Below are positions 11,003-53,632 of a stretch of 64,000 nt of DNA, one piece after another; the first letter of the stretch is position 1, and every line of letters begins with the position of its first letter. A program made the translations under genes and the position numbers. The notes under the pieces are model-generated. The model saw only the letters and a list, made by a program, of their open reading frames with translations, searched no databases and was not told the origin of the DNA. This DNA comes from Ostreococcus lucimarinus (lineage: Eukaryota). The DNA is taken from assembly GCA_000092065.1 (NCBI GenBank), contig CP000585.1, one strand, 5' to 3'.

Positions 11003-12109
11003 CTAACGGTAGTCTCTGCGATCGCGCTTGTCCCTGCGATCGCGCGGGGACGGCGAGCGCGAGTCGCGGCCGCGTTTGCGTTCTCGCGAGCCGTCGCGGT
11101 CGCGGTATCTGTCGCGATCGTATCTATCGTCGCCGAAACGACCACGACTTCGGCCGTCGTATCTGTCGTCGTGTCTGTCGCGACTGGGCGAACGATCGCG
11201 TCTTCTATCCTCGGGCGGCGGTGGAGGCGCCGGCGCGCGCTCGCCGAGTTCGCCCTCTTCCTCAGAGGAGGGCGAGCGCGGCGGCGGCGGCGCGGCGCGA
11301 CCGCCGCGCGGCGGCGAGCGCGGCGGCGAGCGCGGCATCTCTCTACGCTCGCGTTCGCGACGATCATCATACGTTCGATCGCGACCGCGCGCCTCGACGT
11401 TTTCACGTTTTGACCCCGCACGCGTGCGACCGACGCCGCCGCCGAGACGGCGAGGTAACCACCCTTTATTTGTGCGCCCACGCTCGACGTCCGCGATCAC
11501 CCTTCGATCTTCGATGCGACGATCATCCATGCCCCTGTACGCCGCGCGCATGTCGCCCTCGCGCTCGAACTCGATGAAGGCGTAGCCGCGAGATTTCCCC
11601 TTCTCGTCGCGAACCAACTTGACGTCGGACACGGCGCCGTAGTACTCCGCCTCGCGCCTGAGCTTGTCTTCATCTACGTCGTACGCCAACCGTGCGATAA
11701 ACAGCGTGCGATACGGATCGCTCGTCGCGTTCGGGTTTTCGTTCGGACGATATCCGTCCAAACCCGCCTCGATCAACTCGCGAGATTTCCGTTCGGCGGC
11801 GGCGCGCTTGCGCGCCGCGCGTTCCTCCTTGGTCACCACGACGTACACCCCGCTCGGTTTTCGCCCATCATCGTCCTCGTCCACCTCAATCTCGCCCTCG
11901 TCCGCGTCCTCATTCCTCTTCTTCGACGCCTTCCGCTTCTGCGTCGCCGTCTTCGACGCCGTTTCAAACTCCTTCACGCACGCCGCCACCCCCTGCATCC
12001 GCTGCGTCTTTTTCGGTTTCGCCGGCGGCGCGCACCACTTCAGCGGCGCCCTCGGCGCGAACATCCGCAACAAATCCGGCGACAGTCCGCTCGGGTGCGT
12101 GATCGCCAT
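11003..12109 (-). CDS. SNRNP70: U1 small nuclear ribonucleoprotein 70 kDa (U1-70K)
   Basis: N-terminal '[12 protein letters not shown]' U1-70K motif. RRM with '[49 protein letters not shown]'. Long RD/RS/RE-rich C-terminal tail. Start set at the internal ATG (12109). The in-frame upstream Gly/Pro-rich extension to 12505 is treated as uncertain. Confidence 0.85.
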
Positions 12110-12840
12110 CCCTCGAAACTGTCCCGGCGTCGGTCGTCCGCCCATCGGCGGCGGTCCCGTCCCCATCCCCGTCGCCGCGCCCATCCCGAACGGCGGTCCC
12201 ATCCCGAACGGCGCGCCGCCGCCCATCGGCGGCGCGCCGAACGGCGCGCCGCCCGCGATCGGCGGTCCCATCCCGATCGCGCCCGGCCCGCCGCGCGGCG
12301 GCGCCCCTCCGCCGAACCGCGGCGGTGCGCCCATCGTCGTCCCGCCCGCGCCGATCGGCGCGTGCGTCACCGCGGCGCGCGCGAGCGGAACATTCGGCGT
12401 CACCACCGCGCGTCGCGCGTCGTCCGGCGGCGGCGGCGCGCGCCGCATCGCGCGCGCGCGTGTGCGGCGCCGACGCCGCGCGGAATCGTCGCGCGCGAGA
12501 CGCAACCCTAAACCCTAAACCGCGCGATGCTCCGTGTTGTACCCAAGTCTTGTTTCTGCGACGCGTGTGCGCAAACAGTCAGCGGCGTCTTTCCGTCGCG
12601 CGTTTGAAAATTCGAACGCGCGCGTCGGACCGCGACGACGACGGACGACGACGCGCGCGAACGACGACGCGCGCGACGCGACGCGCGGAGGTGCGCGCCA
12701 TTCACGCGCTCGCGAGACGGGCGCTCGGTCGACGGGCGATCGAAAGTCTCGCGCGCGCGACGACGACGCGCGCGAACGCGACTTTGAATTCGAACGCGAC
12801 GCGACGCGGGACGACGACGACGGCGACGGCGGCGCGAGGA
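12110..12840. promoter_or_regulatory. bidirectional promoter region between divergent U1-70K and DHFR-TS
   Basis: Head-to-head gene pair separated by ~730 bp of GC-rich low-complexity sequence (CGCGACG-type tracts). Confidence 0.4.
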
Positions 12841-14364
12841 ATGAAACGAGACCGCGCGAGCGCGATGAACGATGGAAAGTTTCAAGTCGTCGTCGCGGCG
12901 ACGCGCGAGGGAGGGATCGGGAGGGAGAACGCGCTGCCGTGGCGACTCGCCGGGGACATGGGATACTTTAAAAAGATTACGAGCGAGACGCGGGACGGGG
13001 ACGCGATGAACGCGGTGGTGATGGGGAGAAAGACGTGGGAATCGATTCCGGGGAAATTCAGACCGCTGCCGGGAAGGTTGAACATCGTGCTGAGTCGAAG
13101 CGGGGGATTGGCGGAGGCGAACGACGAGAATAATAACGGCGCGGAGACGCTGCCGGAGGGGGTGCTGGTGCGTAAGTCCATCGATGACGCGCTGAGCGCG
13201 ATTTCGTCGAGCGAAAAGAGGATTGAGAAGACGTTTGTGATCGGTGGGGCGCAAATTTACGAAGAGGCGCTTCAAAGCGAAAAGTGCGAAGCCGTGCACC
13301 TCACCGAGGTGGAGGGCGAATTCGAATGCGACGCCTTCATCCCGAAGATCGACGCCACCAAGTTCAAGCTCTATGGACAGTCCAAGCCCATGATTGAGAA
13401 AGGCACGAGGTTTCAATTTTTGACGTACGTCACTGCCGACGCCGAGAGCGGAAAGTTCCGCCCGAAGGCCGACGAGGTTCTGCCCGCGGGTTGCTCGATC
13501 AAGCACGAAGAATACCAGTACTTGGAAATGATTCGCGAAATCATCGATCAAGGCGCGGTGAAGGGCGATCGCACCGGCACTGGGACGATTTCTACGTTTG
13601 GCAATCAAATGCGTTTCGATCTTCGCCGATCGTTTCCACTTCTCACGACCAAGCGCGTCTTCTGGCGCGGCGTCGCGGAAGAGTTGCTGTGGTTCGTCGC
13701 CGGCGAGACGAACGCGAACAAGTTGGCCGAGAAAAAGATCAACATCTGGGATGGTAACGGAAGTCGCGAGTACTTGGATTCTATTGGTTTGACTGAACGC
13801 GAAGTCGGTGATCTCGGTCCGGTGTACGGATTCCAGTGGAGACACTTCGGCGCCGAGTACACGAACATGCACGCCGACTACACTGGCAAGGGCGTGGACC
13901 AACTCGCTGAGGTCATTCACAAGATCAAGAACAACCCGAACGATCGTCGCATTTTACTCACGGCGTGGAATCCGGCGGCGTTGAAGGAGATGGCGTTGCC
14001 ACCGTGCCACATGTTCTGCCAGTTTTACGTTGCCAACGGCGAGTTGAGCTGCCAAATGTACCAACGCTCGTGCGACATGGGTCTGGGCGTTCCTTTCAAT
14101 ATCGCTTCGTATTCCTTGCTCACGTGCATGATTGCGCAAGTTTGCGGTTTGAAACCTGGTGATTTTGTGCACTGCTGCGGAGACACGCACGTATACTCGA
14201 ACCACGTGGAGCCGCTCGAAAAGCAGCTCGCGTGCGAGCCGCGACCGTTTCCGATTTTGAAAATCAACCCGGAAAAGAAGGATATCGACTCCTTCACCTT
14301 TGACGACTTCGAGATCGTCGGTTACGATCCCCACCCTAAAATTGAGATGAAAATGGCCGTCTAA
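12841..14364 (+). CDS. DHFR-TS: Bifunctional dihydrofolate reductase-thymidylate synthase (DHFR-TS)
   Basis: DHFR N-domain ('[20 protein letters not shown]...[11 protein letters not shown]'). TS domain with '[18 protein letters not shown]', '[11 protein letters not shown]', '[25 protein letters not shown]', '[17 protein letters not shown]'. ATG at 12841. The upstream in-frame Arg/Ala-rich stretch is not coding-like. Confidence 0.95.
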
Positions 14365-20648: not shown

Positions 20649-20883
20649 CCCACCGAGCGCGCGCGCGCGCGTCGGCGTCCCCGTACCGTCGTCGCCCCGT
20701 CGTCGCCGCGTCGTCGCGCGCGTCATCCGTCGTCGGCCCAGCGCCCGCGCGCCGTCGCGCGCCGACGTCCGCGCGCGCGCGCGCGCGGCGCGCGTTCGCG
20801 CGATCGCCATCGCGCGCCGTCGCCGCGGCGAGGCGTCGCGCGCGCCGCGCTGTCCGGTCGTCGCATCGCGACGCGCGGGCGAA

Positions 20884-34283: not shown

Positions 34284-36251
34284 CTACCTGTCTCTAAGAT
34301 ACCGCCAATAATGGTTCGTGTACTTGTGAATGTTGAGCACGACGCGATTTTTATTGGCGTACACCCTGTACGAACAGCGATCAACGATGACGTTCTTGTA
34401 GAGCTTGCGGATGAAGAAGCGATAAGCATTTTGTTTACCAAGCGCCCACATCTCTAACGCTCGATCTTGAAAGCACACGTAAACATCGCGCGCAAGAATG
34501 GCCTCGGGAATTTTCAAACGAATCTCCGCCCTCATATCTTCTTCGTACATTTCGTAATTGTCCAACTCGACGCGCTCCATCGCGGCGCCAGCGATCAAGC
34601 TTTCAATATCAATCAAACCTTTGTCCGCGAGCTCAGGTGGGAGCTTTTTGAAGCGATCGAACGTTTCACCTCTATCCGGCGTTCGCTGTGCTTCACTGCT
34701 CGTTTCGGCGACTTGATACGGGTTCTTATTGCGCAATATCGCCGTCTCGTGTTTCTTCATTGCGTCGACGACTTGCTTCGCCGCCATTCGATGCCCCACG
34801 GGGAGGTCTGCCCCGGGACCTATGGTTAGCGAGGCGTACGCACCCAACACGTACATCGACGTTCCTGGCCATCGACAGCCTCCACCTCCGCCTGCAGCCG
34901 CGGTTTGTCCTTTGTCGTGCGCACATTCAATTTTTTCCTCCGCGAGCGCAGGGAAGCCTCGAGCGATTTCTACGGACGTTGTCTCCACGAGCGTGCGGAG
35001 CGCTGGATCTTTCGCCAGGTCCACGAATTCACCACACGCTAGCCATATCTCATCGTGTGTAGATGTGACTTCTTTTTCGAAAATGGCGAGCGCTGAACTA
35101 TCGGGCTCGATTCCTTCGTCGCGATACCTTCTGTACATCGCCGACTCGAACTCCACTTTGGCTTCATCCGTAGGCGCCGATCGAACGCGCCATTTCTTTT
35201 CTCTGTCGCTCCACACGGCGCCATTCAACACGCGTTGCTCCAGAACTCGAATATTATCAGTCTTTAAGGCTGCATCTCGCAAACGACGGTGCGTGTGCTC
35301 GTTCACGCTCGCCTTCGACTTGAAGGACTCGAGCTTGTTGGCGCGAATTTGCGCGTCGGCGCACGCGTGAAATTCGTACAGTCCTTTATTCCCAAAATAC
35401 TTCACGTCGCATTCAAACTCACTCACGGTGATTTTCCTTCGGCACATCAGCGTCACTACCTTGGCGCCGCGCGTCTGCGCAGCGAGCGCGAGCGTCGCCG
35501 CCGTCGTTCCTCCGCCGACGACCAAGATGCACTTTCCTCGCGCGCAATCAGTGGCGCTCATATCCACGTCGGCTGCGTTCATGATTCCACAATCGATGCT
35601 TTGGCGGTCGTAAGACGCGTTGTACTTTGCGTACGACGCTTTCGCTTCCAGGACCCAGGACGGAACTAGCGGAAGGGAAAACTTCGGCGTCCACACGCAT
35701 CGCGCGGCGAGAAACGTCTTTCCGGTGTCGAGCGTCAATAAAATCGCGCCGCACCGCATCATAGCCACCGCATCACGCTCGTCCTGGCCCACGCCAGCAG
35801 CGCCTTCGCTCTCGTCAATTGCTTTGAACGCGTCACGAACCTCTTCCGACGTCTCGTCGCACCACCGCACGTCCACGACGGTGCCTCGCTCCACGCGCAC
35901 GCCACCGAATCGCTCCGCCACCGTCTTCGCGCAGTACTCCGCGAACACCCTCACACTCGGCACTCCCGCGAACCCACTACCCGTCCGCACCACATCGCGT
36001 TTCTTCCCCAACGTCTCTATGTACCGCTCGAGTCCACATGCGTTCTCAAACGGCACTTGCGTCGTCGTCGATCTCAAGTGCGTCGCCCCCAGCCTGAGTT
36101 GCGTCCTCGCGAACGAGTACAACCACGCCCCCGACGGGTCGATCACCACCGCTCGTTCGGCGCGACCTCTGCTCAGCCTCGACAAGACGCTCAAACACGC
36201 GCGTCCACTGCCGACGATCGCGAGCTCGCACCGCTCGCACGCCGTCGCCAT
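34284..36251 (-). CDS. FAD/NAD(P)-binding oxidoreductase with C-terminal CS (p23/HSP20-like) domain
   Basis: Two dinucleotide-binding motifs ('AIVGSGRACLSV' and 'ILVVGGGTTAATLALAAQTRGAKVV'). C-terminal 'VELDNYEMYEEDMRAEIRLKIPE...DVYVCFQDRALEMWALGK...YRFFIRKLYKNVIVDRCSYRVYANKNRVVLNIHK' matches the CS-domain pattern. Start at internal ATG 'MATACERCE'. Confidence 0.65.
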   Translation of the reverse strand: MATACERCELAIVGSGRACLSVLSRLSRGRAERAVVIDPSGAWLYSFARTQLRLGATHLRSTTTQVPFENACGLERYIETLGKKRDVVRTGSGFAGVPSVRVFAEYCAKTVAERFGGVRVERGTVVDVRWCDETSEEVRDAFKAIDESEGAAGVGQDERDAVAMMRCGAILLTLDTGKTFLAARCVWTPKFSLPLVPSWVLEAKASYAKYNASYDRQSIDCGIMNAADVDMSATDCARGKCILVVGGGTTAATLALAAQTRGAKVVTLMCRRKITVSEFECDVKYFGNKGLYEFHACADAQIRANKLESFKSKASVNEHTHRRLRDAALKTDNIRVLEQRVLNGAVWSDREKKWRVRSAPTDEAKVEFESAMYRRYRDEGIEPDSSALAIFEKEVTSTHDEIWLACGEFVDLAKDPALRTLVETTSVEIARGFPALAEEKIECAHDKGQTAAAGGGGGCRWPGTSMYVLGAYASLTIGPGADLPVGHRMAAKQVVDAMKKHETAILRNKNPYQVAETSSEAQRTPDRGETFDRFKKLPPELADKGLIDIESLIAGAAMERVELDNYEMYEEDMRAEIRLKIPEAILARDVYVCFQDRALEMWALGKQNAYRFFIRKLYKNVIVDRCSYRVYANKNRVVLNIHKYTNHYWRYLRDR

Positions 36252-36739
36252 GGCGAAAACGCCCGCCCCGTCCCGTCGAACCCCACGAAACCACCTCCTT
36301 CGCGATCGTTCGCGGTCGCGCGCGCCCGACCGCGCGTTCACACGACGTCTGCGCGCGCCGCCCGACGCAGCGCGATTCCGCGCGCGATTTTCGTCGCGCG
36401 TTCGGCGCCGCGCGTGCGAACCGCGCGTCGCGCTCTGCCGCGTCGCGTCGCTTTTTTCGAGCGTTTCATCGAGCGTTTTTCTATCGAAAAAGTCAACGAG
36501 GCGTGGATGTGCGATACGCCCGACGCGACGACGCACAACGACGCGCGCGACGACGCGTAACGAACCGGCGAGGGAACGAAATAAAATAAACAGGCGCGTG
36601 GCGCGATGCGAGACGACGCGCGCGCGAGGATGGATGCGGTGCCGCGTCGAGAGTCTCGATCTCGGATGCGCTTTTTCTCGACCGACGCGAGAGCGTCGAG
36701 AGCGCCGACTGACGCGGTGATCGCGCCGCGCGCAGACGA

Positions 36740-37807
36740 ATGATGGTCGGGATGCGATTCGGTTCGACGGAGTTTCGACAAAAGTACGACTTCGTCGCGC
36801 AGTTGACGCCCGAGGACGGGGCGAAGATTTGCCGCCAGGTGAGCTTTTATTTCAGCGACTCCAACATCGGGCGAGACGACTATCTGCTTCGCGAAGTGGT
36901 CAAATCAAAGCGCGAGGGACACGATGGAGCGGTGGAATTGGCGACGATCGCGCGGTTTCAGAAGATGCGAGAGTTGCTTGCGCCGTATGGTGGGTACGAC
37001 AATTTCTCGGCGATGATGCCAAAGGTGGCCGAAGCGCTCTCGCAGTCAGACATCGTGGAGGCGTGCGAAAACGGAACGCGGGTGAAGAGAAAATCTTTGA
37101 CGATCGATGGGAAGGAGCCCGATTTTTCTACGGATGAAGGCATGCTTCAATACCGTCAAGCGATGATGGTTGAGCTCGATAAGCGATACGTTTTTGCGAG
37201 CCCGTTCTCGAGGCACGCGACGATGGATTCGATCCGAGCCTTCTTCGACGGCGTCGGCCAAGTCAAATCGATTCGCCTGCGACGACACACGGCTAGTAAA
37301 GATTTCCGTGGAAGCGTTTTCGTCGAGTTCGCGACGGAGGAAGAGGCGAGACACGTCGCCGCGCGCACTGATTTGGTGCACGAGGGCGCGAAAATTGAGC
37401 TCGCGATGAAGTCTGATTACCTCGAGAAGAAGAAGGCGGAGTCGCTCTTACAAAAGGAGAAGCGCCGGCAAGAAGCCATAGCGCGGGGCCAGGATCCGGA
37501 GAATATCCCGCCCGAACCCGAACCTGTTTACGTGGGCAAAGTTCCTGAAGGCTTCGTTCCCGGCCGAGGCGGCGGACGAGGCGGCGGACGAGGCGGTGGA
37601 CGAGGCGGCGGACGAGGCGGCGGACGAGGCGGCGGACGAGGCGGCGGACGAGGCGGCGATCGAGGTGGCGATTTCGGTCACGATGGTCCCGGTCGGGGTC
37701 CTGGATTCGGGTACGGTGGTCCGGATCGCGGTGCGCCTCGCTTCGGATTCGGCGCTCCCGGTCCCCAACGACCCGGCCCTCCACAGCGATTCGGACGCCC
37801 ATACTGA
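36740..37807 (+). CDS. La protein (La motif + RRM + RGG-repeat tail)
   Basis: La motif 'ICRQVSFYFSDSNIGRDDYLLREV'. RRM with 'FRGSVFVEFATEEEA'. C-terminal (GRGGG)n repeat. Confidence 0.85.
   Translation: MMVGMRFGSTEFRQKYDFVAQLTPEDGAKICRQVSFYFSDSNIGRDDYLLREVVKSKREGHDGAVELATIARFQKMRELLAPYGGYDNFSAMMPKVAEALSQSDIVEACENGTRVKRKSLTIDGKEPDFSTDEGMLQYRQAMMVELDKRYVFASPFSRHATMDSIRAFFDGVGQVKSIRLRRHTASKDFRGSVFVEFATEEEARHVAARTDLVHEGAKIELAMKSDYLEKKKAESLLQKEKRRQEAIARGQDPENIPPEPEPVYVGKVPEGFVPGRGGGRGGGRGGGRGGGRGGGRGGGRGGGRGGDRGGDFGHDGPGRGPGFGYGGPDRGAPRFGFGAPGPQRPGPPQRFGRPY
37568..37660. repeat. 15-bp tandem repeat (ggcggcggacgaggc) x6 encoding the RGG/GGRGG box of La
   Basis: Direct repeats are visible. The translated product is GRGGGRGGGRGGG... 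Confidence 0.85.
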
Positions 37808-37928
37808 ACGCGAATGAAATGACGCGAAATGTCGCTTGATGTCCGATTAATGTTTTGCCTAACGAAATGAAAGCTCATGTCTATGATATAATACCGCGCG
37901 TCGCCGCACCACCCGCCAAAAGAATCGA

Positions 37929-38168
37929 TTACTTCATTCTCAACCCGAGGCCCGACATGACCTTGGAGTATTCGTTGAAGTCTCTCTTTTTGAGGTAGTT
38001 TTGCAGGCGGCTACGCTGACCCAAGAGCTTCTTCAACCCACGCTGCGTGGCGTAATCCTTCTTGTTCTTGATCAAGTGCGCGGTGAGCCCTTCGATGCGC
38101 TTGGTGAGGAGCGCGATTTGCACCCCCGAGCTCCCGGTGTCGCTCGCCGACTTTTGGAACTCAGCCAT
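37929..38168 (-). CDS. rps15: Organellar (bacterial-type, uS15) ribosomal protein S15; 3' exon, initiator exon probably upstream
   Basis: 'DTGSSGVQIALLTKRIEGLTAHLIKNKKDYATQRGLKKLLGQRSRLQNYLKKRDFNEYSKVMSGLGL' aligns with bacterial S15. The ORF-table start is TTG. The upstream in-frame extension 'LSRAAAKANASSFAPRRAQTHQRGAL...' is presequence-like and ends at a 'cgcgcag' acceptor. A candidate exon 1 ('MDLDVEIRRRRSRRASRTAAA') lies near 38330-38400. Confidence 0.65.
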   Translation of the reverse strand: MAEFQKSASDTGSSGVQIALLTKRIEGLTAHLIKNKKDYATQRGLKKLLGQRSRLQNYLKKRDFNEYSKVMSGLGLRMK

Positions 38169-38771
38169 GTCCGCCACCGCCGGGCGCGTGCGCTTATCCG
38201 CGGCGACGACTTGCAACGCGCCGCGTTGGTGCGTTTGCGCCCGTCGCGGAGCGAACGAGCTCGAGGCGTTAGCCTTGGCAGCTGCGCGCGAGAGTCAATT
38301 TCGGGTCAGATAAGAGGGTTCTAGGGTCAAATGTACGCCCGCGCGCGACGCACGCGCCCACGCGCGGCCGCCGTCCTCGACGCGCGTCGCGAACGACGCC
38401 GACGTATTTCCACATCCAAATCCATCGCGCGCCGTCGCGCGCGCGCCGTCGCGCGTCGCGCATCACCGCGTCGCGCGCGTCGCATCGCCGCCTCGCCACG
38501 TCGCCATCGCCGATGCGCGCGCGTTCGATCTCGTCGCGCGCGCGCGTCCCGCGCGGCGCGTCCCGCGCGACGCGACGCGACGCTCGAATTTTCTCGCCGT
38601 CGAGACGCACCGATGCGGGTCGTGGAGAGCGTGAACATCGCGCGTCGTGGTGTGCGGCGCGTCGCGTCGCGCCCGCGAGGGTCGGGCGGCAGTCTCGAAA
38701 TGTGAGTCACCACACGGAACACAAAGAGCGCCGAAAAGCGTCCCGCCGCCGCCACTCTTCGACGCGTCGCC

Positions 38772-39362
38772 ATGCGCGCGTCGTCGCGCGCGCCCGCGAC
38801 GCGTTGTCGCGCGCCGACGCGCCTCGTGACGACGCGACGCGCGACGCGCGCGCGCGACGACCGCCGCGCGACGACGCGACGCGCGACGACGACCGCGGAC
38901 GCGGACGAAGAAACCCAAGACGCGCAGGCTCGAAAGATGGCGATCGAATTCGCCGTCATCGCCGACGACACGCGCGCGGTCGAGGTGCAGGTGCTGTCGG
39001 TGGCGAAGAGCGTGTTCTACGCGCGATACGTCGTGCTGGCGACGGCGTTCAATCGACCGCAGATGAACGCGTGCTGCGCGAAGATGCGAGAACTGGCGAA
39101 CGAGGCGTACGGGTTGACGGTGCCGAAGAGCGCGGCGCAGGTGGGGGATTGGGCGTGTTTGGACTGCGCGGACGTCGTCGTGCACGTGTTTTCGCCGAAT
39201 TCGCGAACGCATTACGATTTGGACGGGTTGTATAAGGGCGCGGAGCGCGTTGAGTTGCCGTTCGTGACGGAGACGCGAGGGGGGAGCGAGACGGAGGACG
39301 AATTCGAGCCGTACGACGAAGAAGAAGACGAAGAAGACGACGAATTCGAAGTCTTCGAGTGA
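38772..39362 (+). CDS. rsfS: Ribosomal silencing factor RsfS / Iojap-like protein (organellar)
   Basis: 'AVIADDTRAVEVQVLSVAKSVFYARYVVLATAFNRPQMNACCAKMRELANE...DWACLDCADVVVHVFSPNSRTHYDLDGLY' matches the RsfS/DUF143 fold. Arg/Thr-rich presequence. Acidic C-terminal tail. Confidence 0.8.
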   Translation: MRASSRAPATRCRAPTRLVTTRRATRARDDRRATTRRATTTADADEETQDAQARKMAIEFAVIADDTRAVEVQVLSVAKSVFYARYVVLATAFNRPQMNACCAKMRELANEAYGLTVPKSAAQVGDWACLDCADVVVHVFSPNSRTHYDLDGLYKGAERVELPFVTETRGGSETEDEFEPYDEEEDEEDDEFEVFE

Positions 39363-42377: not shown

Positions 42378-42989
42378 CTACGCGTCGGCGACGGCGCGGC
42401 GACCCGGCGGTAACGCCGGTTTCTTCCGCACTATCGGCGGCGCCGGCGGGTCGTCGTTCGCGCGCACGCCGTCACCGTCGCCGTCGCGCGTCCCTCTGGG
42501 AGCCGCCGCCGCGGGCGCCGCGCGAAGCGTCGTCGCCGCCAACCGTCTCGCGACTTCGGACGCCGGCGTCGCCGCCGCGCCCACGCGCACCGTCACCGCC
42601 TCGCTCGGATCGAACTCCACGAATTTCGGCGCCCTCGCCGCGACGTCGGACGTCGACCGCGCGTCGAGGTCGACGCGCGCGTCCCGCGCCGCGCGTTCCC
42701 GCGTCCCGACCGCGTCGCCGCCGCCGCGCGCCGCCGCGCGCACCTCTCCCGCGTTCGCCAGCGCCACCCCACTCGTCGTCCGCGCCAGCGCCGCGCGCGC
42801 GACCGCGACCGTCGCGCCGCGCTCGACGTCCTCGATCGTCGCCACCCCGGTCCAGCGCTCGCGCTCGACGACGACGACCTCACCGTCACCCGTCGCGAGC
42901 CGCAGTTTGAGCGTGCGACTCGCGCGCGCGTCCTCGCGCGCGCGCGCGCCGCGCGCGACGTCGCGCGCGTCCACGACGCGCAGCGCGAC

Positions 42990-43026
<37 letters not shown>

Positions 43027-43049
43027 CGCGCGACGCCCGACGGACGCAT
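42378..43049 (-). CDS. Hypothetical protein (low-complexity, Asp/Gly and Ala/Arg-rich)
   Basis: ATG-initiated 223-aa ORF filling the ~1-kb gap between PDH-E2 and the SUN gene. Its start is 49 bp from the SUN ATG (divergent). Composition is only weakly protein-like. Confidence 0.3.
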
Positions 43050-52779: not shown

Positions 52780-53632
52780 CGCGTCGTCGTCGTCGCGACG
52801 CGCGCCTTCGTCGTCGCGATCGTTCGCCGCGCGTTCGCTCGCGCGTCGTCGCGCGCTCGAGCGTCGCGCGCGCGTGTGCGGCGAACGGATCGATCGGATC
52901 GATCGGTCGCGCGCGCGACCGGGTCGCGCGTCGCGACACCGACGCGCGCGACGAGCGCGCGACGCGCGCGCGCGGCGCGCGACGAACGACCGCGGCGCGC
53001 GCGCGCGCGGCGCGCGATGCGGGACGCGCGCGCGACGACGCCGCACGACGTCGAGCTCGGCCATCGCGCCGAGGCGTCGACGAGCGACGCCGCGCGCGAC
53101 GACGACGCGACGACGCGCGACGGCGACGACGACGCGCGCGACGCGACGACGCGCGACGACGACGACGACGCGCGCGACGCGGCGTCCCCGGGACGGGCGC
53201 CGATCGGAGGGATCAACGAGGACGGGTACTTCGGCGACGCCGACGGCGCGTGGCTGCCGAGCGATCGCGTGCCGTTGGTGCTGCGCGCGCGAGAGGCGGC
53301 GATGGCGGCGGGAGAGGATTACGGACGGGACGTGCGAACGTTCCTCGGCGCCTTCGGATGGCCGATCGCGGCTTCGGCGTTTTGCGTGTTTCTGTTGATT
53401 TTCGCGCTCGAGGAATTCGGCGGCGCGAAGACGCGGCGACGCGGGCCGTGACGGGGGCGAGGCGTTCGGCGGCGGCGGCGACCGCGCGGGGGTGGTTTTT
53501 GCGTTGATATTTAGTAGACTCATTAAGGTGTGGCGCGGGCGCGCGATCGGGTCGATCGCGCGTCCGCGCGTAGTAGCGCGTTTTGCAATAGTACGCTCGC
53601 GTCAGAGCTTCGGCGCCGCACACGCGCGCGCG
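52780..53632. promoter_or_regulatory. bidirectional promoter region (PSMB4 / Qri7), GC-rich low-complexity (CGCGACG)n tracts
   Basis: Divergent gene pair. ~850 bp dominated by gcgcgacg / gacgac repeats with no convincing ORF. Confidence 0.35.

Follow-up and report, generated by a model that had tools for sequence, protein, structure and literature searches.

In chlorophytes outside the Prasinococcales, rps15 has not been identified in the chloroplast genome (cpDNA) (PMC4194372). The chlororibosome of Chlamydomonas reinhardtii has been resolved with an S15 protein in place, chain o of the structures PDB 9TVU, 28JW and 28LU being the chloroplast form, uS15c (PMC12919044). Since rps15 is missing from the cpDNA of their lineage (PMC4194372), the Mamiellophyceae therefore need a nuclear copy of the gene to serve the plastid. 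The introns of Ostreococcus lucimarinus, a member of this lineage, follow the consensus GTGCGTG at the 5′ splice site and ACTGAC at the branch site, and their tabulated median length is 111 nt (PMC2483917).

The locus described here lies on the minus strand of the window, a 64,000-nt stretch of O. lucimarinus contig CP000585.1, in which the GC content is ∼55–73% per 2 kb and open reading frames (ORFs) are densely packed. It is, with high confidence, an ordinary nuclear gene with two exons from an Ostreococcus-like prasinophyte (Mamiellales) that encodes a 126-aa precursor of a bacterial-type uS15 (Table 1).

An S15 frame without its own start codon

The frame encoding the S15 domain does not contain an ATG at which it could begin. 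It opens after a TGA at 38296-38294, its first start-type codon is a TTG at 38216-38214, and the only in-frame ATG is internal, at 38168-38166. A previous sequence-only reading of the window had made this observation and had assigned the product to an organellar S15, which is correct; the protein is of bacterial type. Its S15 identity is borne out by Pfam, where PF00312 (Ribosomal_S15) is matched at 97.6–97.8 bits, against a cut-off of 31, by residues 48-124 of the 126-aa product, covering profile positions 5-81 of 81. S15 chains in the PDB amount to 63 distinct sequences at E<=1e-3, the best being 4iyl_A (6.9e-21), with E. coli chains at ∼3e-17. From this similarity, the protein would be expected to adopt the four-helix fold and to bind the central-domain junction of 16S rRNA. 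Among bacterial genomes sharing the word NKKDYA.Q, relatives with ∼50–55% identity are found in each of the Cyanobacteria, Elusimicrobia, and Bacteroidota; the scan limited to this word returned none from alphaproteobacteria.

The same reading had proposed that the S15 gene is split, with a start outside the S15 frame and a targeting sequence completed across a phase-1 intron by an upstream exon. Spliced sequences described below contain such a junction, and they use the very acceptor that had been named, cgcgcag/C at 38282/38281, with exon 2 starting in phase 1. The peptide quoted in frame upstream of the S15 domain is also present, although it contains SSS rather than the SS that had been given. 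What did not survive is the proposed first exon, as the gene starts elsewhere.

Gene structure and spliced sequences

With the unspliced part of the S15 frame as query, a protein (P0001) was retrieved that matches the whole query at 100% identity and begins MFTLSTTRIAAKANASSS... Three short contigs of 518–961 nt, independent of one another, encode P0001: L001 (Logan SRR28326253), L002 (ENA ERZ4843270), and L003 (ENA ERZ4842641). They match the window on either side of 38610..38282 and are without exactly that GT...AG segment. Exon 1 reads ATG TTC ACG CTC TCC ACG ACC CGC ATC G, encoding MFTLSTTRI and the first base of codon 10. Joining 38611 to 38281 completes this codon as Ala10 (G + CT), and the exon-exon junction becomes ...CGCATCG/CTGCCAAG. 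The resulting precursor, with the N-terminus MFTLSTTRIAAKANASSSFAPRRAQTHQRGALQVVAADK..., is identical to P0001 at 126/126 residues. Its start codon lies ∼190 bases farther upstream than the ATG favoured by the earlier reading. A further protein, P0093 of the MERC catalogue, which belongs to the same 90% cluster as P0001, shows the same junction; its sequence, ...GTPRRAMFTLSTTRIAAKANASSS..., extends into the translated 5′ leader of the window. MERC was presumably built from Tara Oceans metatranscriptomes.

The excised segment is a U2-type GT-AG intron: it is precisely absent from the spliced sequences, carries the consensus signals of the lineage, and is conserved in position and phase. Its donor is the only GTGCGT in phase 1 upstream of the acceptor. 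The interior consists of (CGCGACG)n-like, CG-rich low-complexity DNA with a CG dinucleotide frequency of 0.26, versus 0.12 in exon 2, and resembles many other non-coding stretches of the window, such as those at 52906-53182, 42920-43030, and 20742-20877.

The window match of L002 and L003 stops at common ends, at 38653/38654 on the 5′ side and 37833/37831 on the 3′ side, which look like both ends of a ∼0.5-kb mRNA. Poly(A) was not seen at the putative transcript end near 37831-37833. Between 38654/38653 and 38638 there is no ATG, and because the ends of L002 and L003 are taken to mark the start of the mRNA, 38638 would be its first AUG. Expression of the gene would accordingly begin with an mRNA starting near 38654 (-), from which the U2-type GT-AG intron 38610..38282 (phase 1, donor GTGCGTC, CTGAC branch site) would be removed to join the 28-nt exon 1 to 38281..37929, and translation would proceed from the AUG at 38638.

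Table 1. Features of the S15 locus in window coordinates (a slash marks a splice junction).
Feature	Coordinates	Strand	Remarks
Probable 5′ UTR	38639..38654	(-)	start near 38654/38653, as suggested by the ends of L002/L003
Exon 1, coding part	38638..38611	(-)	28 nt; present in P0001 and L001-L003
Intron	38610..38282	(-)	spliceosomal GT-AG, 329 nt, phase 1; missing from L001-L003
5′ splice site	38604..38610	(-)	G/GTGCGTC; 6/7 match to the O. lucimarinus consensus GTGCGTG
Earlier proposed exon, MDLDVEIRRRRSRRASRTAAA	38362..38425	(-)	intronic, non-coding; skipped in L001-L003
Probable branch site, CTGAC	38305..38309	(-)	putative branch A at 38306, 24 nt before the intron's 3′ end
3′ splice site	38282..38294	(-)	ctctcgcgcgcag/C; junction seen in L001-L003
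Exon 2, coding part	37929..38281	(-)	rest of targeting peptide, S15 domain, and TAA stop (37931-37929)
Exon-2 part of predicted transit peptide	38202..38281	(-)	residues 10-36, ...ASSSFAPRRAQTHQRGALQVVA; variable region among relatives
Internal in-frame ATG (Met48)	38166..38168	(-)	not a start codon; Val in all relatives
Probable 3′ UTR	37831..37928	(-)	transcript end probably near 37831-37833, from L002/L003

Conservation in relatives

The gene order TrmO - RsfS - S15 - (Pyr_redox-like) is kept in three other Ostreococcus-like loci. A coding mini-exon, 25–37 nt long and followed by a phase-1 intron, recurs in the orthologous loci L010, L007, and L005. In L010 it encodes MFAVSART and is followed by the donor G/GTGCGT, an intron of 351 nt, and the acceptor CGCGCAG; in L007 it encodes MFAVNAVSVSRI, with the donor G/GTGCGT, 314 nt, and CTCGCAG; in L005 it encodes MFAVQATTRI, with the donor G/GTACGT, 537 nt, and CGCGCAG. 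In two Micromonas-like loci (L011 and L012), the first coding exon is 76 nt long and a 347–350-nt phase-1 intron follows at the equivalent place, ∼23 residues before LQVVAA. The UniRef S15 of O. mediterraneus (P0005) begins MFAVNATQARIAVKSNASSSFA. The TATCTGACCCGAA block at the branch region is also present in L010, while the intron interiors of the orthologues, including the region of the exon proposed earlier, gave no alignment.

In the relatives, stops in the frame of the exon-1 ATG lie 45–189 nt upstream of it; in most of them the distance is 45–156 nt and no ATG comes between, and only L007 has an upstream in-frame ATG. An N-terminus extended to the in-frame ATG 135 nt upstream, at 38773, was rejected on the grounds that L002 and L003 start near 38654 and that relatives have in-frame stops. 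No stop codon in the window separates ATG 38773 from 38638, and it is only the 5′ ends of the contigs and the relatives that exclude this start.

The 3′ part of the intron contains a telomere-repeat-like block, which in the window is TGACCCTAGAACCCTCTTATCTGACCCGAA (also written GACCCTAGAACCCT). L010 and L007 carry near-identical blocks and L005 carries one that is displaced, the Ostreococcus-like form being GACCCTA(G)AACCCT. Micromonas-like introns carry a hairpin, AAAACCCTA...CAGGGTTT (AAACCCTA / TAGGGTTT-type), and AACCCTAAACCCTAAACC is also found between two divergent genes at 12503-12520. By analogy with the ‘telo-box’ of plant translation-apparatus genes, the block could be a conserved element controlling expression, though this is rather improbable; it may be nothing more than the context of the branch site. 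The motif ACCCTAR occurs five times in the window versus 1.9 expected, an excess that is not significant (6/100 shuffles reach 5), and two of the five sites are within coding sequence.

Other candidate functions of the intron were also considered. An intron-encoded C/D-box snoRNA was rejected, as the only match, RF02479, reached 18.6 bits (E 0.29) where the gathering score is 100; ATGATGA/CTGA box-like motifs are not conserved across all orthologous introns. The Rfam scan of 37800-38800 for structured RNAs gave just two chance-level matches (E ∼0.3). An Introner-like repeated intron was likewise discarded, since blastn against the window returned only diffuse 70–80% matches between the CG-rich low-complexity core of the intron and other non-coding stretches, and no discrete repeat family. 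The scan for bacterial promoters and terminators was empty and is irrelevant here.

Alternative starts and the origin of the intron-less contigs

The first exon of the sequence-only reading began at ATG GAT TTG GAT GTG GAA ATA CGT CGG (MDLDVEIRRRR...). This string exists, at 38425-38423, 5 bases past the limit of 38420 that had been set for it, and of its two donor candidates the GT at 38361 (CGC/GTGGGCG) does join in phase 1, whereas the other, GTGCGT at 38353, falls in phase 0. The 64 nt from ATG 38425 to the GT at 38361 would thus give an in-frame exon, with a donor (C/GTGGGC) agreeing at 5/7 consensus positions and an 80-nt phase-1 intron ending at the same acceptor. However, the segment is intronic: it is spliced out in L001-L003, where the true exon 1 with its donor G/GTGCGTC is used, it is missing from P0001 and P0093, and the introns of the orthologues contain nothing that aligns with it as coding sequence. 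Its gtgggc donor departs from the GTGCGTG consensus of Ostreococcus (PMC2483917). The 520 nt preceding the acceptor contain 35 distinct ATG...GT combinations that join in phase 1, because the CG-rich sequence is almost free of stop codons; the frame containing ATG 38425 is open from 38971 to 38327. The proposed exon is one of these combinations and no more than chance. Its presequence-like peptide owes its richness in arginine to translation of the (CGCGACG)n low-complexity DNA that occupies non-coding stretches throughout the window, and the acidic MDLDVE is an atypical start for a targeting peptide. An exon 1 at this ATG can be given almost no weight. Hardly more probable is a gene with no functional upstream exon, in which translation from ATG 38168 or TTG 38216 would give a presequence-less S15 of 79–95 aa, the outcome that the earlier reading had held out as fatal to its own model. 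Mechanical ORF calls in public metagenome catalogues do take both forms: P0003 has 95 aa, with the TTG read as Met, and P0010 has 79 aa. The Pfam domain match, moreover, begins at Met48. Yet every relative has Val in place of this residue, even P0093, which shares the 90% cluster of P0001. Met48 corresponds to Pfam profile position 5 and approximately to E. coli S15 residue 12, and the QVVAA.K..RP upstream of it is invariant in nine aligned Mamiellales sequences (Ostreococcus- and Micromonas-like); initiation at the internal ATG would therefore not yield the conserved product of the gene. It would also bypass the presumed first AUG of the mRNA at 38638 and leave out the targeting peptide that a bacterial-type ribosomal protein requires when it is synthesised in the cytosol. 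P0003 and P0010 are the outcome of prokaryote-style gene calling on eukaryotic DNA.

The two-exon model draws on contigs whose origin also has to be weighed. From their distribution, the intron-less contigs are concluded to be most probably RNA-derived, because the spliced junction has 0 occurrences in the metagenome contig collection and the intron is kept in ten long contigs (7–100 kb) that contain the exon 1-intron junction and share 99.4–99.8% identity with the window over a 901-nt stretch that takes in the intron. They could instead be genomic DNA of strains without the intron, reflecting a presence/absence polymorphism rather than splicing. L001 (961 nt) has a genomic-like appearance, holding the 5′ coding end of RsfS upstream and the 3′ end of the La gene downstream, and its upstream part is just 84% identical to the window. 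Against this, every intron-less contig is shorter than 1 kb, L002 and L003 share transcript-like boundaries, and fusion of overlapping opposite-strand transcripts, which would account for both neighbours in L001, is documented in 8.9% of clusters of O. lucimarinus ESTs (PMC2367439). L001 is either such a fusion or, less likely, an intron-less genomic allele. For the contigs as a set, an intron-less allele is very improbable, and if true it would give identical exon boundaries.

Targeting peptide and predicted destination

The first ∼36 residues of the precursor are Ser/Ala/Arg-rich and variable, and are followed by a switch to the invariant QVVAA.K..RP. This N-terminus (MFTLSTTRIAAKANASSSFAPRRAQTHQRGALQVVA) would serve as an organelle-targeting peptide that is cleaved off, the likeliest type being a chloroplast transit peptide. 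Cleavage is proposed at VVA/A, before Ala37 (codon 38201-38199), a site that presumably fits a loose stromal-processing peptidase motif. The mature protein of ∼90 aa would then join the small subunit of the chloroplast ribosome in place of the rps15 product lost from cpDNA. When the N-terminal 69 residues were compared with the PDB, no transit peptide was matched and the S15 part alone aligned.

The product is probably destined for the chloroplast. A family profile built from nine Mamiellales sequences matches chain o of PDB 28JW/9TVU at 81.2 bits (E 7e-22, aligned profile positions 19-125). Mitochondrial uS15m chains of the green lineage are among the weakest matches of this profile (45–52 bits): 7pkq_o, which we take to be from the Chlamydomonas mitoribosome, scores 51.9 bits, 9evs_N 46.1 bits, and 6xyw_Bn (At1g15810) 45.3 bits. 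The family is thus closer to chlororibosomal S15 than to green uS15m (81.2 versus 45.3–51.9 bits). An exhaustive HMMER search found the nearest relatives outside the Mamiellales to be green-algal precursors of 137–158 aa with a C-terminal S15 domain, two of them coming from Pyramimonas transcriptomes. Their N-termini are Ser/Ala/Arg-rich and resemble green-algal transit peptides, for example ...KSSFNGAALK... and ...STFSGATLK...; similar N-termini with SSF/FxG occur in other green-algal S15 precursors. A chloroplast transit peptide is considered likelier than a mitochondrial presequence because the chlororibosomal S15 scores higher and rps15 is missing from cpDNA. The earlier reading was correct in expecting a targeting sequence with an upstream exon, but its mitochondrial interpretation appears to be the weaker one.

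The same gene model could nevertheless supply a mitochondrial uS15m or a dual-targeted protein. The N-terminus is basic and hydroxylated, without acidic residues, which fits a mitochondrial presequence too; algal transit peptides and mitochondrial presequences look alike, and uS15m, too, has to be encoded in the nucleus. The divergent neighbour of the S15 gene is RsfS/iojap, of which plants have both plastid and mitochondrial forms. S15 is moreover so short that its phylogenetic signal is weak, its bacterial similarity is not specifically cyanobacterial, and the plastid-encoded S15 of spinach matches the profile at just 58.8 bits, all of which tempers the chloroplast assignment. On the other hand, the uS15m chains of solved mitoribosomes are all 164–419 aa, with the S15 domain inside a much longer protein, whereas the precursor here has 126 aa and its mature form is bacterial-sized. 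Their scores fall well below that of the Chlamydomonas chlororibosomal chain, and the closest relatives are green-algal precursors with the same short architecture. A cpDNA without rps15 also requires a nuclear plastid copy (PMC4194372). A mitochondrial or dual-targeted product is thus unlikely, although its likelihood is appreciable, and the chloroplast remains the preferred destination.

Implications for annotation

The split S15 gene with its 5′-proximal intron is a routine annotation correction and typical for Ostreococcus. Its 126-aa product is already known, being present in public protein catalogues, and no open biological question hinges on the locus. In picoalgae, small organellar ribosomal-protein genes whose start codon is on a mini-exon of 25–76 nt are easily mis-called. 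Prokaryote-style callers yield TTG-started or internally started fragments such as P0003 and P0010, and a Micromonas-like entry of 89 aa that is also in NCBI (P0033) begins at an internal Met. CG-rich low-complexity introns translate to arginine-rich peptides that mimic targeting sequences; therefore, composition alone is no evidence for a presequence exon.

Comparison with known systems

The S15 intron shares with standard Ostreococcus introns the GT-AG ends, the donor, a CTGAC 24 nt before the AG, a 5′-proximal site, and residence in a translation-apparatus gene. It is longer than these introns, with 329 nt versus a median of 111 nt.

The protein contains the full-length domain of bacterial S15 (rpsO; E. 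coli, Thermus thermophilus), and many bacterial chains are matched at 66–91 bits. Its residues 46-124 align with residues 10-88 of E. coli S15, and the motifs DTGS...VQIALLT and KKD...RGL are conserved. The gene differs in being nuclear, in containing a spliceosomal intron, and in encoding an N-terminal targeting extension of ∼36 aa, which is absent from bacteria.

Mitochondrial uS15m proteins (7pkq_o, 319 aa; 6xyw_Bn, 419 aa; yeast 5mrc_OO, 253 aa) likewise have an S15 domain, are nuclear-encoded, and are imported into an organelle. They differ in their long N- and C-terminal extensions, whereas the protein described here would be bacterial-sized once its short presequence is removed. The rps15 products of land plants (spinach 5MMJ/5X8P) and Prasinococcales have the ribosomal role in common with it, the family match to spinach being the 58.8 bits given above. 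Those genes reside in cpDNA and encode no transit peptide, while in the Mamiellophyceae rps15 is absent from cpDNA (PMC4194372) and the gene here is nuclear.

Similarity to the uS15c of C. reinhardtii is limited, the N-terminal extension alone is not alignable, and residence in the chloroplast is a prediction in the case of Ostreococcus. The Chlamydomonas uS15c gene is presumably nuclear-encoded as well. Both proteins belong to PF00312, and both are made as short precursors, 141 aa in C. reinhardtii and 126 aa here, in which an N-terminal extension precedes the S15 domain.

Genes flanking S15

The S15 gene of the window stands head to head with a gene for an RsfS/iojap ribosome-silencing factor, and only ~118 nt separate the RsfS ATG from the probable S15 transcription start. 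Three other Ostreococcus-like loci keep this arrangement; the Micromonas-like loci do not. The gap may serve as a bidirectional promoter from which both of these organellar-ribosome genes are transcribed.

On its other side, S15 converges with a gene whose product combines a La domain and an RRM with a run of GGRGG repeats at the C-terminus; a 12-nt tandem repeat encodes this run. Because the La-gene stop codon lies only ~24 nt from the probable 3′ end of the S15 mRNA (window 37807-37831), the 3′ UTRs of the two genes probably overlap. Downstream of the La gene, a 750-aa ORF matches nothing in Pfam at E<=1e-3; the counterparts of this ORF in related loci give no more than a faint Pyr_redox_2 match.

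Coordinates of features in the window and in related S15 loci
Feature	Location	Strand	Remark
U1-70K-like RRM/RS gene	window 11003..12505	-	
AACCCTAAACCCTAAACC	window 12503-12520	+	2.5 plant-type telomere units
DHFR-thymidylate synthase ORF	window 12325..14364	+	
750-aa ORF	window 34284-36536	-	downstream of La gene
La-domain gene	window 36740..37807	+	convergent with S15
12-nt tandem repeat	window 37560-37680		La gene
Telo-box-like block	window 38312-38329	-	S15 intron
RF02479 match	window 38325-38425	-	S15 intron
S15-RsfS gap	window 38654-38774		
RsfS/iojap gene	window 38772..39362	+	PF02410
Telo-box-like block	L010 485-512		S15 first intron
Telo-box-like block	L007 3018-3035		S15 first intron
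Telo-box-like block	L005 2964-2980		S15 first intron
Inverted-repeat version of block	L011 2588-2615		S15 first intron
Inverted-repeat version of block	L012 2293-2320		S15 first intron
Palindrome-rich element	L012 1530-1850		upstream of S15 exon 1
P0033	L012 1977-2770		S15 locus; the P0033 entry is 89 aa

Intron-less contig and public models of relatives

The public contig L001 (1-961), which carries S15 without the intron, also holds the 5′ coding end of RsfS (antisense) and the 3′ end of the La gene. Identity to the window is only 84% in its upstream part, against 99% in the remainder. L001 derives either from overlapping sister-strain transcripts that have been fused or from a genomic allele that lacks the intron.

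The Micromonas-like S15 entry P0033, which NCBI lists among other sources, starts at an internal Met (..ANK-MSRPSL..). Upstream of this start, L012 has a coding exon of 76 nt followed by a phase-1 intron of 350 nt; together these would extend the N-terminus by 58 residues, and P0033 looks like a truncated model. In another Micromonas-like clade (P0017, P0020-P0023), exon 1 (MMTSM...STG) is apparently joined straight to RGRLQVVAANK, ~20 residues nearer the mature protein than the junction in L011 and L012. This suggests that the acceptor has shifted or that part of the predicted transit peptide has been deleted. The Ostreococcus-like S15 ORF P0062 resembles the family as far as ...FQKNAS and then continues into unrelated sequence, which may mean that its lineage has a second intron or a frameshift.

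Motifs in the S15 first intron and elsewhere

A telomere-repeat-like (telo-box-like) block within the first intron is conserved across Ostreococcus-like and Micromonas-like loci. In Ostreococcus-like loci it reads GACCCTA(G)AACCCT and lies directly 5′ of a predicted CTGAC branch site, except in L005, where the acceptor is ~190 nt away. The version in Micromonas-like loci is an inverted repeat, AAAACCCTA-loop-CAGGGTTT.

The match of the window's intron to the C/D-box snoRNA family RF02479 in Rfam is weak and non-significant (18.6 bits, gathering score 100; E 0.29). ATGATGA/CTGA-like boxes are present in the L010 and L005 introns and absent from that of L007.

A second telomere-like motif in the window, AACCCTAAACCCTAAACC, lies in a short divergent intergenic region between the U1-70K-like gene and the DHFR-thymidylate synthase ORF. 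The palindrome-rich repetitive element 5′ of S15 exon 1 in L012, a Micromonas-like locus, is built of AAAATCGGGT(C/G) units and resembles a miniature transposable element (MITE).
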